Shown here one piece after another: positions 1 to 6,000 of a stretch of 11,743 nt of DNA; the first letter of the stretch is position 1; the number at the start of each line of letters is the position of its first letter. This DNA comes from a virus (lineage: Duplodnaviria > Heunggongvirae > Uroviricota > Caudoviricetes): the IMG/VR virus record IMGVR_UViG_2645727555_000019; one strand, given 5' to 3'. The position numbers are program-made.

Positions 1-3000
1 TTCCGTTCATATGAGCAAAAGTGGTGTTGAAGAAACATCCGTTTTGTGATGTTTTTTTAATCTTTTTGGGGTTTTAATTCCTATCGATGAACGTTACGGG
101 CAATTTTCACAGAGTAGTTAAAAGCTACTCTGTGCTTGAACTCACGTAAAGTTTCACCTTCAAGTTTGAAGAAGTGTTTTTCCTCAATGAAACGACCTTT
201 GTTTTCGTGGTGATTCTGGCGAATACGAATAGCTTCTGTGCCGTAAAGGTGCGCCAAAAGTTCGGTAGTGATAACGGGGATCTGCTTGTAAGTAATCGTG
301 GAGAGTGTTTCAACAGAGATTTGAGTTGTCATAATGACGCCCTCGAGTGGTTTCTTAATAACTCACCACCGACGACGCCAATCGTCTGGTGGTGAACTGT
401 GCAGGGTTGGCGTAACCGGGAAACCGACCGGCGCGGATCTCTCCGCCCCCACACAGCCCACCATAATTCAGATGTGCGCGTGCATACGACAATAAAAAAC
501 ACGCTCGCGGCGTGTATCTGTCGCGGTCTCTATCCAGGACGCCAATCCCGACGCCAGATTTTGCTGGCGCGTGAGGAATATAGCCCCGAATAAATCATCA
601 CGTCAATCACCTTGTTTTCCTCGCACGATGTCTTAGCCACCGGATATCCCACAGGTGAGCCGTGTAATTGAAGGCTTTAACGTCAGATTCTTTTGGGATT
701 GGCCTGGGTTTATTTCTGGAACGTTTCGTTGGAAGGTAATTGCAGTTTTCACAGACTATATCGGTAATGCTTCGTCGCTGTCGTCTCATTCATACCTCCT
801 GTCGGTAAATCTGACACCCTGCTCCACAGCCCAGGAAGTTGTGTACTCAATCAGGCTTGCCATACGCTTCACGCTCATCTGCGCACTGCTTTCGCGGATA
901 TTGACGTATTCACCTTCAAGACCAGGCAAAACATCAGCTTCCTGTTTTGTCGCCACGGCATGACCGCTGATTAACAAAACTTTCCACTGTTCTGGTTTTA
1001 GCCATCTGCCGCACCACTGAACCTGTCGGGAGATATCAGCGACCATCGCGTGAAATTTGGCATTTTGATCGAGATTCCGCTTGTAATCGGTGATGCGGAT
1101 CGTAACGGGTTTGTCTTTATCGAGAGTTGTTGCAAGGATGGCGTTAATGGCGAATTGTTGCTGCTGCTTACTTCGGAGGAAGATAGTCTGGTTCATTATT
1201 CCCTCTCACTGGATTTTCCCAACAAAAAAGGAGCCGAAGCTCCTTTAGTTTCAGAATTCAAATTGTCTTGCCCGTAGGCTTTTCAGCATTGGCATGGCCC
1301 GCTGGATAACGGAACTTGACATGTCGAGACGTGTTACCTCCCTCAGTAGCGCGTCTCTGTTCTTCGTCACCATGTAGATGGTCTCAAACGCAATGTCATA
1401 CAGCTTGTTCGTGTATGAGGAGTTCAGCTCTTTCATAATGGGATACAGGTGTTTGCTGATGTCCTGGGCTTTTTCCATCCAGAGCTGCATGTAGCAAAGG
1501 AGGATGATTTCTTCGGCTGTGAATTGTGGCTGAATCTGCGGCTGCTGTTCGGTTGGTGCTGTTTTTCCCTGGCTGAAATAGCAGTCTTCCAGTTTTTCGA
1601 ATACCTCCCACGCCCGATCGGTTTCGAGCATTTTTGCGTGACGGGCTGCGCCGCGTTCTGTCCAGAGGATGAGGGAGCGGGCATTTTTACCAACTAACCC
1701 GATTGTTTCGGGTCTGTTCTTAAACTCGCGTAATTCGTTTTTTTCAATTTTAAAGTAATGCTTTCCGGGCATGAATCGCGTCGTGTTGTTCAGAAAGTTA
1801 TCAGAAATGTTTTTGATTTTTGTTCCGTAAAGGTGAGCCAACAGTTCAGTAGTAATTACGGGGATCTGGTTATAGGTAACAGGGGAAAGGTTTTCGACAG
1901 AAATTTGAACAGCCATAATGACCTCGCGTTTCGATAATTTTTACCTCGCCACCGTCAGGTGCTAATCATCGTGGTGGCGAACTGTGCGGGGTTAGCACTA
2001 CCGGTCGAAACATCCGGCGAGCCTTTCGGCTCCCCCACACAGCCCGCCATAAATCGCGAATGTGACTGTGCTTAGCGCATAAAAAAACCGCCAGCGCGGT
2101 TATGCACCGTTTCGATATCCGGGGTGCTAATCCCGACGCCAGGTTTTGCTGGCGCGTGAGGAATATAGCCCCGAACACGCGACGTTGTCAAACTGATGGC
2201 ATTGCAGATCCCTACGCAATGTAACACTATGTGTTATACATTAATAACGGAACAAAAAATGCGCATTTTTAAAAACGCCTGGTTTGAGCGACTTGCACGC
2301 AAAACAAAATATCCGACCAATCACTGCGCGAAATTGTTAAACAGGCTGATAACGGGCTTATCTCAGCAAACCTGGGTAACGGCGTTATCAAGCAACGTCT
2401 GCCACGAGTCGGTGGCGGCAAATCTGGCGGTTATCGCACAATCATTTTCTATCGCGTCGGCACAAGGGCCTTTTTCGTATATGCATACGCAAAAAATGAA
2501 CGTGAAAATATAACCGCTACTGAGGAAAGTGCATTTCGGAAGGGGCTCCTCACGTACTCAATCTAACAGATGAACAACTGGCACAACTGATTCTACAGGG
2601 TCAGTTTACGGAGGTACCCAATGAGTAAAAATTACCGCAGTGATGCGCTTGCATCCGTACATGAAATGATGGAATCGCTTCATGATATCGGCGCAGTAAC
2701 GAAACAGACTATGCGAGAATTCGATGAAACTTGTCTCCAGCCAGCGCCGGTAATGTCTCCGGAAAGGATCCGTGCACTGCGCGAACGAGAGCATCTGTCT
2801 CAACCTGTTTTTGCCAGATACCTCAACGTCAGTAAAAACCTGATATCAGACTGGGAACGTGGTGTAAAACGGCCGGGAGGTGCCGCTCTTCGCCTTCTTT
2901 CAGTCGTAGAGAAAAACGGAATCCAGGTAATATCATGATACTCCAATACAACAAAACCCGCCGAAGCGGGTTTTCATTAGAAGCACCTTTAGTTTTGCTG

Positions 3001-6000
3001 TTCTATTTTAAGCTTGATAGTTTCATACAAAACAACAGTTGCGCCTGTTTTACATAATTCCCGGCCGTCATACGCACGAGACCAATAACACAACCAGTTC
3101 TCGAGATCTTCTCGAGTATAGGTTTTGCAGGCCAGTCCCTCTGCCATTTCCACGATTTCATCGCCTGGTGCTGTTAACTCATAGCCATTCAACAACAAGA
3201 AGACATAACCAGCCATCATAGCTGTTCGTTTGTTTGCATTAGCAAATGGATGATTCTGAATCAGACTTTCAATCAATACTGATGCCAGTACAAACATGTC
3301 ATTAGTCTGTTCATACCATCGAACCATGCTGGGACGAGACTGAGAAGAACTTAAATTATCAACACTCAGCACACTAACAGGTTCATCTGGTGTTTGAAGC
3401 TCAATTAAAAGGCGATTAATTTCGGTAAGATCATCAAACGAAAGGTAGTGCACTCCTTCAACAATCTCAGCCATAGAGCACAATACCCATCATTACACTT
3501 TTGAAAGTTCTTCCATTGCCTTCTCGTAACGAGAAAAACCGAAATCGAAAGCATTTTTCACCTGCTCACGATGAGTGCAATTTTCATCGATAGCCGGGCG
3601 CGGAGCTGCCACAACGCTTTTATCGCGAGGGGGAATAGTCAATCGCGGGTGTTTTTTTAGTGCGTAGCTCATTGGGTGTACCCTTACTTCTCCGTCCTGT
3701 TCTTTAACAAAAATCAAGTCAATACAAAATTAGTCAGGCTAATGTTGTTAGCATAGCCTAATACCGATCGTATTCACAACCACAGTACGTGAAAAAACCC
3801 GCCGAAGCGGGTTAAGTGCGGGTGCGTTGAGGATGCCTGACACATCAGAGGTGGCGAGGGATTTCTCCCTCGCCTGGTCTCTTACTCCTCAGGTTCGTAA
3901 GCTGTGAAGACAGTGACCTCCGTCTGGCCGGTTCGGATTCGTACCTCGCAGAGGTCTTTCCTCGTTACCAGTGCCGTCACAATGACGGTAATACAGATGA
4001 CGATCAGGGCGACTAACATCGCCTTTTGCTGCTTCATAGCCTGCTTCTCCTTGCCTTTCGGCGCGTAAGAGGCTAACCTACATGTGTCTAGCATGAAATT
4101 GGCCTCAGATTAATGTTAGGCGTCTTGCAGGACGCGTAATGTTAACTGGGGCTTTTCTCTGTCTGCCTTACGGTGGCATGCCCGAGGCAGACAGCCTCAA
4201 GCACCCGCAGCAATTCTACTTAACTCTCGCTTTACCGCAAACCGTTTTTACCCGATATGGGAATTCCCATATCGTAATGAATTCAGTTCCCTAGTCGATC
4301 CATCAAAAACACAACCAGGCAGTAAACGCCCACAACAGCAATAACAGCCAGCGCACCTTCCATTGCCAGTGATATATCATCCGACATATTCCCTCCTTTG
4401 GTGTTAATCCCGGCGAACGTTTTTACCCCCACCGACAAATAACATATACTAAAAAAGTGATAGCCATAGCAACGCCTGTAATTGCAAATGCTTCAGGCCA
4501 GTTCATTGGCGCACCTCCTGCGGCGGTTCTGGTAGCGGCATCCAGTCGGTTACATTGCGGCTCTGTGTTTCGAAAAATTCATCACCATCACGGACTACAT
4601 CAAAAAACTCACCGTCTCGATATTGCGCATAAAGAACGAATGCGCCATCACATAAAATAATTACGTGCTGACCGTCATCCGGCATTCGCTCACTACAGCT
4701 TATCCAACCATCCAGAGTTACCGGATGGTTGGTTGACGTTTCCGAGATTTCCCGAAAATTATTGGTTGACGAACCCTTCTTTTCCCGAAAGTTTCCAGCC
4801 TGAAGCATGGCGGCGCTGTCTGGCGGGGCAGCATATAGCGGCACGTATATTTCCGGTTCCTTATCAGCACCGGGTTGCTCTTCCAGTGAGAATGTCTTTC
4901 CGGTAAATCGATTCATATAAAGCACGGGCTCTGCTTCCAGCGAAGCCTGAGCAACAAGGGCCAGTGCTAAATCCAACTCAATTGCCTCGAGAGAATTTTT
5001 GAATGCTGTCTGTTTTACTGCAAATTTCATCGCCTTTACATTTTCACTAACATGACTGATTAACTGCTCTTTTGTAAAAGTGGTCATCTCATTCTCCTTT
5101 GATGCGAATGCCAGCGACAATTGAAGCCTGATAGCTAATTTACTCACAGTACCGCCTCCTGAAAATTCCCCTGATAGAAAGCCAGCACGCGCTGCATAAC
5201 TTCACTATTCCGGCACTCGCGACAGATTATGTTCAGGCGTCTATCGTAGCGGCGAATTTCTCCGTCTGGTAACTTTCGAATCAATGTCTGGTCAGTTGTT
5301 TTCTCCGGTGTCTTACGCCATACGCGATACACCTGTTCTGATGCAAAAACACCGTATTTACCGGACATGTATAAATCGCCACAAGCCAGTACATCCACAA
5401 GGCAACGTCTGACTGAATGCCAGCCTGCTCCCGTCGCTCTCTCCAGTTGCGATATCGTCATGCGTTCATTTTTGCGTACCAATCCGATAATTCGTGCCTT
5501 CAGTTCTTCCCGCTGTTCGTGTGTAAAAGGTTTCGCCATAAGCGCCTCCGGCAATCACTTTTCCGACACAATACGACCGGATGAATCGACAATCTGTCGA
5601 ACAATATCCCGGTGCTTGTTCAGCTCCCGCAGCGCGGCGCAGACTCGCTCCCACTTCTGGACCTGTTTTTTGGCGCGACGAAGTTCTCGACTGGCAGCAT
5701 GCAGCGATGGAAGCATCACCGAACTGGCAGATTTTTCGGTGAATGATGGAACTTCTCGGATAAACTCATCTGTACTGGCCTTTGCCGTGCTCTCTGATGC
5801 CAACGGAAAACGATTCATTTCATCGCCTGCCGCGCTGTTTTCTGCGTCATGGTGTGATTGCTTATTCTGCGATGATAAGGCGCTCAAATCGCCGTTTTCG
5901 ACATCAGGCATTTTGTAACGGAATTTTCCGTTGCTGATCTCGCGTACCAGGCGTCTCGTTGCTGTTACCACCGCCAACGTGGAAGCAACCTTACGAGTGC

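Follow-up and report, generated by a model that had tools for sequence, protein, structure and literature searches.

A free-standing 59-residue protein linked to a prophage-borne Doc toxin: a candidate minimal antitoxin

Introduction

What might restrain a Doc toxin whose gene is preceded by one for a small protein that does not resemble the antitoxin Phd? This question is raised by a stretch of 11,743 nucleotides of Caudoviricetes DNA (IMG/VR virus record IMGVR_UViG_2645727555_000019), called the window below, in which the gene for a Doc (death-on-curing, Fic-fold kinase) toxin of 161 residues follows a gene for a 59-residue partner on the same strand. An earlier note on this DNA, made from the sequence alone, had described the pair as a possibly under-described Doc-antitoxin combination and had proposed that an inverted repeat upstream of it serves in autoregulation. 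The analysis reported here indicates that the two genes probably form a type II toxin-antitoxin module carried as cargo by temperate phages, with the partner serving as a minimal antitoxin that lacks a DNA-binding domain.

Linkage of the partner and Doc genes

The partner gene lies immediately upstream of an intact Doc gene, in the same orientation, at 14 distinct places (16 loci were collected, and two pairs of these show the same place), and every intact Doc gene found of this subfamily had the partner gene just upstream. This linkage holds over several prophage contexts, including those of Escherichia, Salmonella, Kluyvera, Ewingella, Providencia, Morganella and Pseudomonas phages. In Ewingella (L002/L003) the pair is located between tail and baseplate genes, and at L004/L005 it adjoins dinI/umuDC. 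Loci L006-L011 are three from Providencia and one each from Morganella, P. heimbachae and Kluyvera. It follows a XerC-type integrase gene in Pseudomonas phage LPPA56 (L013) and, in Pseudomonas phage Sirocco (L012), a gene in the integrase position for a 382-residue 'hypothetical protein'. In Salmonella (L015) it stands beside hok, ParDE and VapBC, and two more prophage contexts are represented by L021 and L022. A scan of genome contigs with Doc yielded 6 loci only. A type II module is expected to consist of two small neighboring genes in the same orientation that stay paired whatever genes surround them, and this is the arrangement that was found. Thus the combination of Doc with a small upstream protein unlike Phd, first noticed in the window, recurs across genera and prophage contexts.

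Loci where the pair has been disrupted are also informative. In one E. coli prophage lineage (L018-L020), the partner gene is intact and Doc has been cut to 'MADIVQGVR*' (~9 codons). The orphan partner of L018 (positions 3001-3400 of that locus) is 83% identical, and Doc is replaced there by a DUF2335 gene, as is also the case in L019 and L020. Because the partner has been kept while Doc has been lost, these loci have decayed in the way that is usual for a toxin and its antidote.

The Doc toxin

By sequence comparison, the toxin in the window is an ordinary member of the Doc family. It matches the TIGR01550 model (DOC_P1) with E=1.4e-35 and 122.1 bits, above the family cutoff of 38.65, the Pfam Fic model PF02661 with E=3e-11 and 44.4 bits (cutoff 24), and the phrog_577 'Doc-like toxin' profile with E=1e-50. 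RefSeq labels the gene 'type II toxin-antitoxin system death-on-curing family toxin', and the solved structures matched by phmmer include the Doc of PDB entry 9VZC (E=1.1e-12) and P1 Doc (3K33; E=1.2e-4). The HPFANANKR motif, which the earlier note had considered clear, is indeed encoded at 3226-3252, within an open reading frame that passes the TIGR01550 model, and it conforms to HxFx(D/N)(A/G)NKR, the Doc form of the Fic motif (PMC13034048). In an alignment of 43 Doc homologues, H75, F77, N79, N81, K82 and R83 of this motif are invariant, and A78 and A80 are nearly so. The same alignment reveals a conserved extension specific to this subfamily (WLCxWSRxYDxRxLC, residues 127-141), located outside the TIGR01550 model, and a variable, unconserved tail beyond residue 141. 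The subfamily is widespread in Enterobacterales, with 261 clusters at E<=1e-5.

The 59-residue partner

Its pattern of substitutions identifies the partner as a real gene under strong purifying selection. Comparison with orthologues from Salmonella, Kluyvera, Ewingella, Providencia and Morganella shows saturation at synonymous sites (proportion of synonymous differences, pS, 0.75-0.99), and the corresponding nonsynonymous value (pN) against other genera is 0.11-0.24 for the gene as a whole and 0.05-0.14 for its last 26 codons. Only 18 nucleotides (nt) separate the end of the partner gene from the ATG of Doc on the same strand, and RefSeq annotates exactly two genes, the partner and Doc, at these positions. 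Residues 1-59 of the partner align with positions 1-59 of the 59-position phrog_2208 profile (E=2.7e-42).

The earlier note had judged that the partner does not resemble Phd/YefM antitoxins, and the hidden Markov model searches that it proposed bear this out. Neither the 59-residue nor a 74-residue reading of the gene matched any family at E<=1 in Pfam and NCBIfam, and no model for Phd/YefM (PF02604 or its NCBIfam equivalents), AbrB/MazE, ribbon-helix-helix, helix-turn-helix (HTH) or other antitoxins was matched at this threshold. PADLOC likewise gave no hit for the partner at E<=1. When the partner family was compared with a Phd alignment by hhalign, the probability was 0.85%; the 11-column match on which this value was based ('PRLTIPPRDKS' to Phd 'EEVEITRRGRE') was discarded as evidence.

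An exhaustive profile search of 1.84 billion representatives returned 39 proteins at E<=0.001 for the partner family, compared to just 17 clusters in an earlier word-indexed search, and provided no bridge to any larger family. All members are 38-95 residues long except for two long hits (2917 and 1274 residues), which matched the profile in multiple short, low-complexity stretches and were ignored. A profile search of PDB with the family (E<=10) produced no Phd and just two weak, unrelated hits, one to ribosomal protein S25 (E=0.21) and the other to a RES-domain protein (E=1.1), both judged to be chance matches.

Two conserved blocks are evident in an alignment of 38 family sequences. The N-terminal block, [RK]LxIPxRDK, is followed by a proline-rich stretch and corresponds to RLxIPxRDK at residues 10-18 of the window protein. 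The C-terminal block, QVxNAFxxGFxRYEKAxEELSKV, extends up to the very last residue, and in the window it corresponds to the conserved helix QVKNAFDFGFSRYEKAMEELSKV (residues 37-59). R16, A41 and L56 are invariant in this alignment, and I13, P14, Y49 and K58 are conserved in at least 90% of the sequences. AlphaFold, supplied with the family alignment, predicts one helix at residues 34-57 (block-mean predicted local distance difference test score, pLDDT, ~81-90) and an extended N-terminus, and no DNA-binding fold was seen in the model.

The suggestion that the pairing is under-described also stands, as the partner is a 'hypothetical protein' in RefSeq and of 'unknown function' in PHROGs, and literature searches by accession or for a Doc-specific small antitoxin yielded no paper on the family. 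It was not seen in the accessible portions of the text and supplementary files of the NetFlax study (PMC10440598). Combinations of Doc with antitoxins other than Phd are already known, for example with an AbrB-like partner in E. faecalis (PMC13034048) and with a Panacea protein carrying a Phd-C element (PMC10440598). What is new, as far as the searched libraries and papers show, is a free-standing partner family of ~59 residues that has no DNA-binding domain and is strictly linked to one prophage-borne Doc subfamily.

Likeness of the C-terminal helix to Phd

Known Doc antitoxins offer a useful hint regarding the manner in which so small a protein might act. Residues 52-73 of P1 and Salmonella Phd form a C-terminal bent helix that occupies the concave face of Doc (PMC9207808; PMC13034048), where F56, L/I59, F/M60, L/H63, L67 and L70 are the hot spots for binding (PMC9207808). 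The E. faecalis antitoxin, which is unrelated in sequence, also inserts a C-terminal bent helix (residues 52-79) into the Doc groove (PMC13034048). Furthermore, the isolated Phd-C element fused to SUMO is described in the NetFlax study as sufficient to neutralize Doc, and antitoxins made of a neutralizing element alone are mentioned there as known (PMC10440598).

When the partner and Phd are anchored at their C-termini, F42/F46/Y49/M53/L56 of the partner fall on F56/F60/L63/L67/L70 of Phd, and each protein ends 3 residues past its last leucine. Large hydrophobic residues therefore occupy five of the six hot-spot positions; the sixth (I/L59) corresponds to the conserved G45. The end-anchored profile score exceeds that of 99.3% of column permutations, yet it is equalled by a +4 cyclic shift. 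This likeness is suggestive and not significant: what the two sequences share is an amphipathic helix of suitable length in a suitable place, which would agree with a common binding mode but is no proof of it.

The upstream region

The earlier note had placed the inverted repeat GCTAA-N5-TTAGC over the candidate -10 element of the operon promoter and considered this consistent with autoregulation. The repeat itself is present (GCTAA-CAACA-TTAGC at 3738-3752, inside AGGCTA-N12-TAGCCT at 3736-3759), with these repeats located 57-87 nt upstream of the partner ATG. Its overlap with a promoter -10 was not supported, as it coincides with no consensus promoter. A consensus scan detected no sigma-70-like promoter on the minus strand between 2900 and 4150. 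A promoter belonging to the module itself, if any, must lie within 3673-3793, and a manual search of this 121-nt leader revealed no arrangement with 16-18 nt spacing above 8/12 matches. The 'candidate -10' TATGCT, taken with TTGTGA at 18 nt, reaches only 8/12.

Short repeats of this kind are readily produced by chance. With loops of up to 12 nt, ~2860 combinations of position and loop multiplied by 4^-5 give an expectation of ~3 five-base-pair repeats per 220 nt, and the longest arm was at least 6 in 29% of shuffles of the 130-nt leader. The presence of five short repeats in 130 nt against a shuffle mean of 1.27 gives P=0.0085, for a count that was chosen post hoc. The leader also holds four TTAG/CTAA words at ~10-nt spacing, and these words are enriched upstream of the module in three close relatives as well, both observations again being post hoc. 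No TTAG enrichment is found upstream in L010 or L021, whose partners are 78% identical. Because of the post hoc choice and the absence from other lineages, this enrichment is not used as evidence. The repeat is also not kept in the alignable orthologous upstream regions of L015, L018 and L022. With a repeat that is at chance level and not conserved, no consensus promoter, and a partner without a DNA-binding fold, the proposal of an operator with autoregulation was not sustained for the window.

The Providencia and Morganella modules carry a strong promoter-like TTGACT-N17-CATTAT upstream of the partner gene, at ~91 nt from its ATG in L006, L007 and L011, ~92 nt in L008 and ~83 nt in L009. Between the two hexamers the Morganellaceae loci have a 22-nt palindrome (TAATGTAACTTAACTTACATTA in Providencia) whose pairing is kept through compensatory changes, with arms of TAATGTAA...TTACATTA in L007, TAATGAAA...TTTCATTA in L008 and 9-base-pair arms in L009. 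This palindrome looks like an operator, and its covariation indicates that some regulator acts on this module family.

Proposed mechanism

By analogy with P1 and Salmonella Doc, the Fic-fold kinase encoded in the window would phosphorylate EF-Tu and thereby stop translation. The 59-residue protein, made just ahead of Doc, would act as a neutralizing element alone. Its C-terminal amphipathic helix (residues 34-57) most likely sits in the concave groove of Doc, and the extended proline-rich N-terminal part, with its invariant IPxRDK, probably adds further contacts to the toxin. We infer that Doc is toxic, that the partner binds it directly in this mode and neutralizes it, and that the pair contributes to prophage maintenance and/or to the exclusion of other phages. 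Since no DNA-binding fold is recognizable in the partner, the antitoxin of this version of the system is unlikely to repress its own operon from an operator in the classical way.

A more elaborate form of this mechanism, which we regard as improbable, would make the partner a two-part inhibitor, of a type so far undescribed for Doc, whose helix occupies the Phd groove while the N-terminal IPxRDK performs a separate job. That job could be to plug the active site of Doc as a pseudosubstrate, given that R16-D17 is loosely like R381-T382 of EF-Tu, the phospho-acceptor being replaced by an acidic residue. It could otherwise be to pair with the subfamily-specific Doc extension at residues 127-141, or to serve as a DNA-contacting arm that takes shape only when the complex is assembled. 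This last option would account for the compensated palindrome of the Morganellaceae promoters as well.

Alternative explanations

Several observations weigh against a partner that neutralizes Doc with a Phd-like helix. The hot-spot register, being no better than the +4 shift, may only reflect a generic amphipathic helix, and the hhalign comparison with Phd is negative. The AlphaFold model of Doc built from the 43-sequence alignment is poor (mean pLDDT 51.9), too low for analysis of the groove, and the scan of the window identified no sigma-70-like promoter for the module. Doc also has a conserved C-terminal extension of its own at residues 127-141. This extension, which lies past the TIGR01550 model and precedes a terminal helix predicted with low confidence at residues 144-160, invites the idea that Doc is restrained by its own C-terminus, like those Fic proteins that contain an inhibitory helix themselves, and that the partner is no antidote but an unrelated travelling phage gene or a positive factor such as a chaperone or activator. 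We consider this very unlikely. The two genes are strictly linked, and their order and spacing do not change over the 14 places and several phage contexts; the retention of the partner where Doc has been deleted is the decay expected of an antidote, unlike that of an activator; Doc shows no conservation past residue 141; and the most conserved part of the partner is an amphipathic helix as long as those of known Doc antitoxins.

If the partner is an antidote, its service to the phage might still be read in more than one way. It is possible, although we do not favor the idea, that the pair is mainly a defense or abortive-infection module in which a labile partner acts as the sensor: once it is lost or titrated when an infecting phage shuts off host expression, Doc would be freed and the arrest of translation would abort the infection. 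This proposal concerns the biological role and is compatible with the neutralization mechanism. The module is found only as cargo of temperate phages and prophages, in variable 'moron' positions, among other cargo of the toxin-antitoxin or defense type (hok/sok, RelE-like/HTH, ParDE and VapBC); PHROGs places the toxin in the class 'moron, auxiliary metabolic gene and host takeover'; and toxin-antitoxin pairs are increasingly assigned to phage defense in the literature (PMC10440598). PADLOC, however, gave no significant hit for Doc or the partner, the best being a candidate family matched at E=0.002 in the Fic motif region only. An integrated prophage needs no addiction module, though this is not positive evidence for defense. 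The partner might instead be a DNA-binding antitoxin that autoregulates the operon through GCTAA-N5-TTAGC over the promoter -10. The existence of the repeat fits such regulation, as do a modest enrichment of short inverted repeats and TTAG/CTAA words seen upstream both in the window and in three close relatives (P ~0.01-0.03 each, post hoc) and the much stronger compensated palindrome between good -35/-10 hexamers in the Morganellaceae loci L007, L008 and L009. Even so, this explanation appears distinctly unlikely for a protein that matches no DNA-binding antitoxin domain and is modeled as one helix with an extended tail, downstream of a repeat whose short arms are expected by chance, that is lost in some relatives (with the TTAG enrichment missing in others), and that overlaps no consensus promoter called on the minus strand. 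A minimal antitoxin that acts through its helix is thus the reading that we retain.

Genomic setting

The window belongs to a lambdoid E. coli prophage, of which it forms the early-right region. Over a stretch of 891 bases around the Doc/partner pair, identity is 100% with E. coli AST198 and 99.6% with O104:H4 outbreak strains, and at least 80% of this stretch is present in 125 of 5426 complete E. coli genomes. RefSeq lists the genes, in minus-strand order, as a cI-like repressor, cro-like, cII and replication genes, followed by DUF1627, DUF977 and DUF551 genes, hokD, the 59-residue protein (WP_000119356.1) and the 161-residue Doc. A convergent HTH gene with a RelE/ParE fragment comes next, and the series ends with ORF6N, BRO, NinB, NinE, RusA, NinH and Q. 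The features of the module are collected in Table 1.

Table 1. Coordinates of the Doc module and adjoining features in the window
Feature	Position	Strand	Remarks
Hairpin, intrinsic-terminator-like	2953..2974	-	15 nt past Doc stop codon; 9 pairs, 5 of them G-C; from terminator scan
Doc (death-on-curing, Fic-fold kinase) toxin gene, 161 residues	2989..3474	-	ATG at 3474, stop codon 2989-2991
Codons of catalytic motif HPFANANKR	3226..3252	-	Doc residues 75-83; from sequence
59-residue partner gene, putative minimal antitoxin, phrog_2208, WP_000119356.1	3493..3672	-	ATG at 3672, stop codon 3493-3495
Leader/intergenic region, 121 nt	3673..3793	-	From upstream hairpin to partner ATG
Nested inverted repeats AGGCTA-N12-TAGCCT and GCTAA-N5-TTAGC, beside ATTAG-N5-CTAAT	3736..3759		Function unsupported
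Upstream copy of G+C-rich 20-nt hairpin AACCCGCTTCGGCGGGTTTT	3794..3813	-	End of hok locus; direct repeat

Identical 20-nt hairpin copies at 2953-2972 and 3794-3813, 841 nt apart, bracket the module. Some 40 bases that include the upstream hairpin recur, without the module, in other lambdoid phages and in E. coli genomes by the thousand, and a DNA-level search of a phage collection found the shared hairpin only. The fact that the hairpin is common to genomes without the module suggests that the cassette was gained or exchanged by recombination at the hairpin.

Other toxin-antitoxin genes are located nearby. A complete hok/sok type I locus (3882-4206, minus strand) lies directly upstream of the Doc module, with a Hok open reading frame at 3882-4037 (minus strand; Pfam HOK_GEF, E=1.2e-22) and a match to the Rfam sok model at 4032-4206 (minus strand; 116.9 bits against a gathering score of 59). 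The Rfam model for isrK, a small RNA of Salmonella prophages, gives a sub-threshold match at 3792-3873 (minus strand; 31.2 bits against a gathering score of 50, E=1.5e-4) that spans the hok 3' region and the hairpin. A third toxin-antitoxin-like pair (2196-2938, plus strand) is convergent with Doc and consists of an HTH/MqsA-like protein (2621-2938, plus strand) preceded by a RelE-like toxin that is apparently frameshifted: a RelE N-terminal match occurs in the open reading frame 2196-2513 (plus strand), and RefSeq has a C-terminal piece at 2360-2566 in a different frame. In the Salmonella enterica locus L015 (2496-5009), hok, the partner and Doc, ParD/ParE and VapB/VapC stand in a row in one prophage arm.

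Elsewhere in the window, units encoding the peptide 'QPQQPEAD' recur in a replication-initiator-like open reading frame (7098-8180, minus strand) and in a small one upstream of it (8201-8419, minus strand). The repeated peptide units imply repeated DNA units, which may be origin iterons. The open reading frames 81-332 and 1251-1916 (minus strand) share a near-identical N-terminus, M..QISVE.LS..TY.QIPVITTELLAHLYGT, and are paralogous genes of the ORF6N/BRO type on either side of ninB; RefSeq annotates 1251-1916 as ORF6N and a longer gene containing 81-332 as BRO.

Significance

Interest in Doc toxins comes from their study as persistence factors and as drug targets, and attempts to inhibit them have been built on the C-terminal peptide of Phd. 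If the proposed function is true, the partner would be the smallest natural Doc antidote, free-standing at 59 residues, and peptides designed to block Doc could then be modeled on a second template, independent of the first. The partner would also represent a clean case of the 'neutralizing element alone' stage proposed for modular antitoxin evolution. Furthermore, annotation pipelines could give a name to a gene still called 'hypothetical' in ~2% of the complete E. coli genomes (125/5426), including the O104:H4 outbreak strains, and that is also present in Salmonella, Providencia, Morganella and Pseudomonas prophages.

Comparison with known systems

Among known systems with Fic-fold toxins, the FicA/YhfG antitoxins of the class I Fic toxins (FicT) are similar to the partner in size and arrangement: they are helical proteins of ~55-60 residues, encoded upstream of the toxin and free of a DNA-binding domain. 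Their defining inhibitory motif is (S/T)xxxE(G/N). This motif was not found in the 38-sequence alignment and is absent from the conserved positions of the partner family, which has no Pfam hit, and the toxin in the window is of the Doc (kinase) type, unlike the AMP-transferring FicT enzymes.

The P1 and Salmonella Phd-Doc systems (PDB 3K33, 3DD7) share with the window module the toxin family, the form of the catalytic motif, the order of the genes with the antitoxin first, close spacing and carriage by temperate phages. The partner is predicted to end in an amphipathic helix of ~24 residues, and the fall of its large hydrophobic residues in the Phd hot-spot register, at the same distance from the C-terminus, is suggestive. 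It differs from Phd in lacking the DNA-binding domain that Phd/YefM proteins carry at the N-terminus, the comparisons detected no homology between the two sequences, and its 59 residues begin with an extended proline-rich N-terminus that bears an invariant motif of its own. The toxins differ as well, as the Doc of the window has 161 residues and a conserved extension, compared to 126 residues for P1 Doc, to which it is only distantly related (phmmer E=1.2e-4). Evidence for an operator or autoregulation was not found for the window module.

The closest solved relative of the toxin is the Doc of the E. faecalis Phd-Doc system (PDB 9VZC; E=1.1e-12; PMC13034048). The antitoxin of that system binds DNA through an AbrB-like beta-sheet domain and has a palindromic operator (PMC13034048), neither of which belongs to the partner, and it was not detected by the partner-family profile in the PDB search. 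Because the E. faecalis antitoxin is unrelated in sequence to P1 Phd yet also places a C-terminal bent helix in the groove, partner families can evidently differ while the binding mode stays constant. The single-domain antitoxins and Phd-C elements described in the NetFlax study (PMC10440598) share with the proposed mechanism the concept of a short linear element that is sufficient against Doc. The Phd-C element described there is attached to Panacea (PMC10440598), whereas the partner of the prophage Doc is naturally free-standing.

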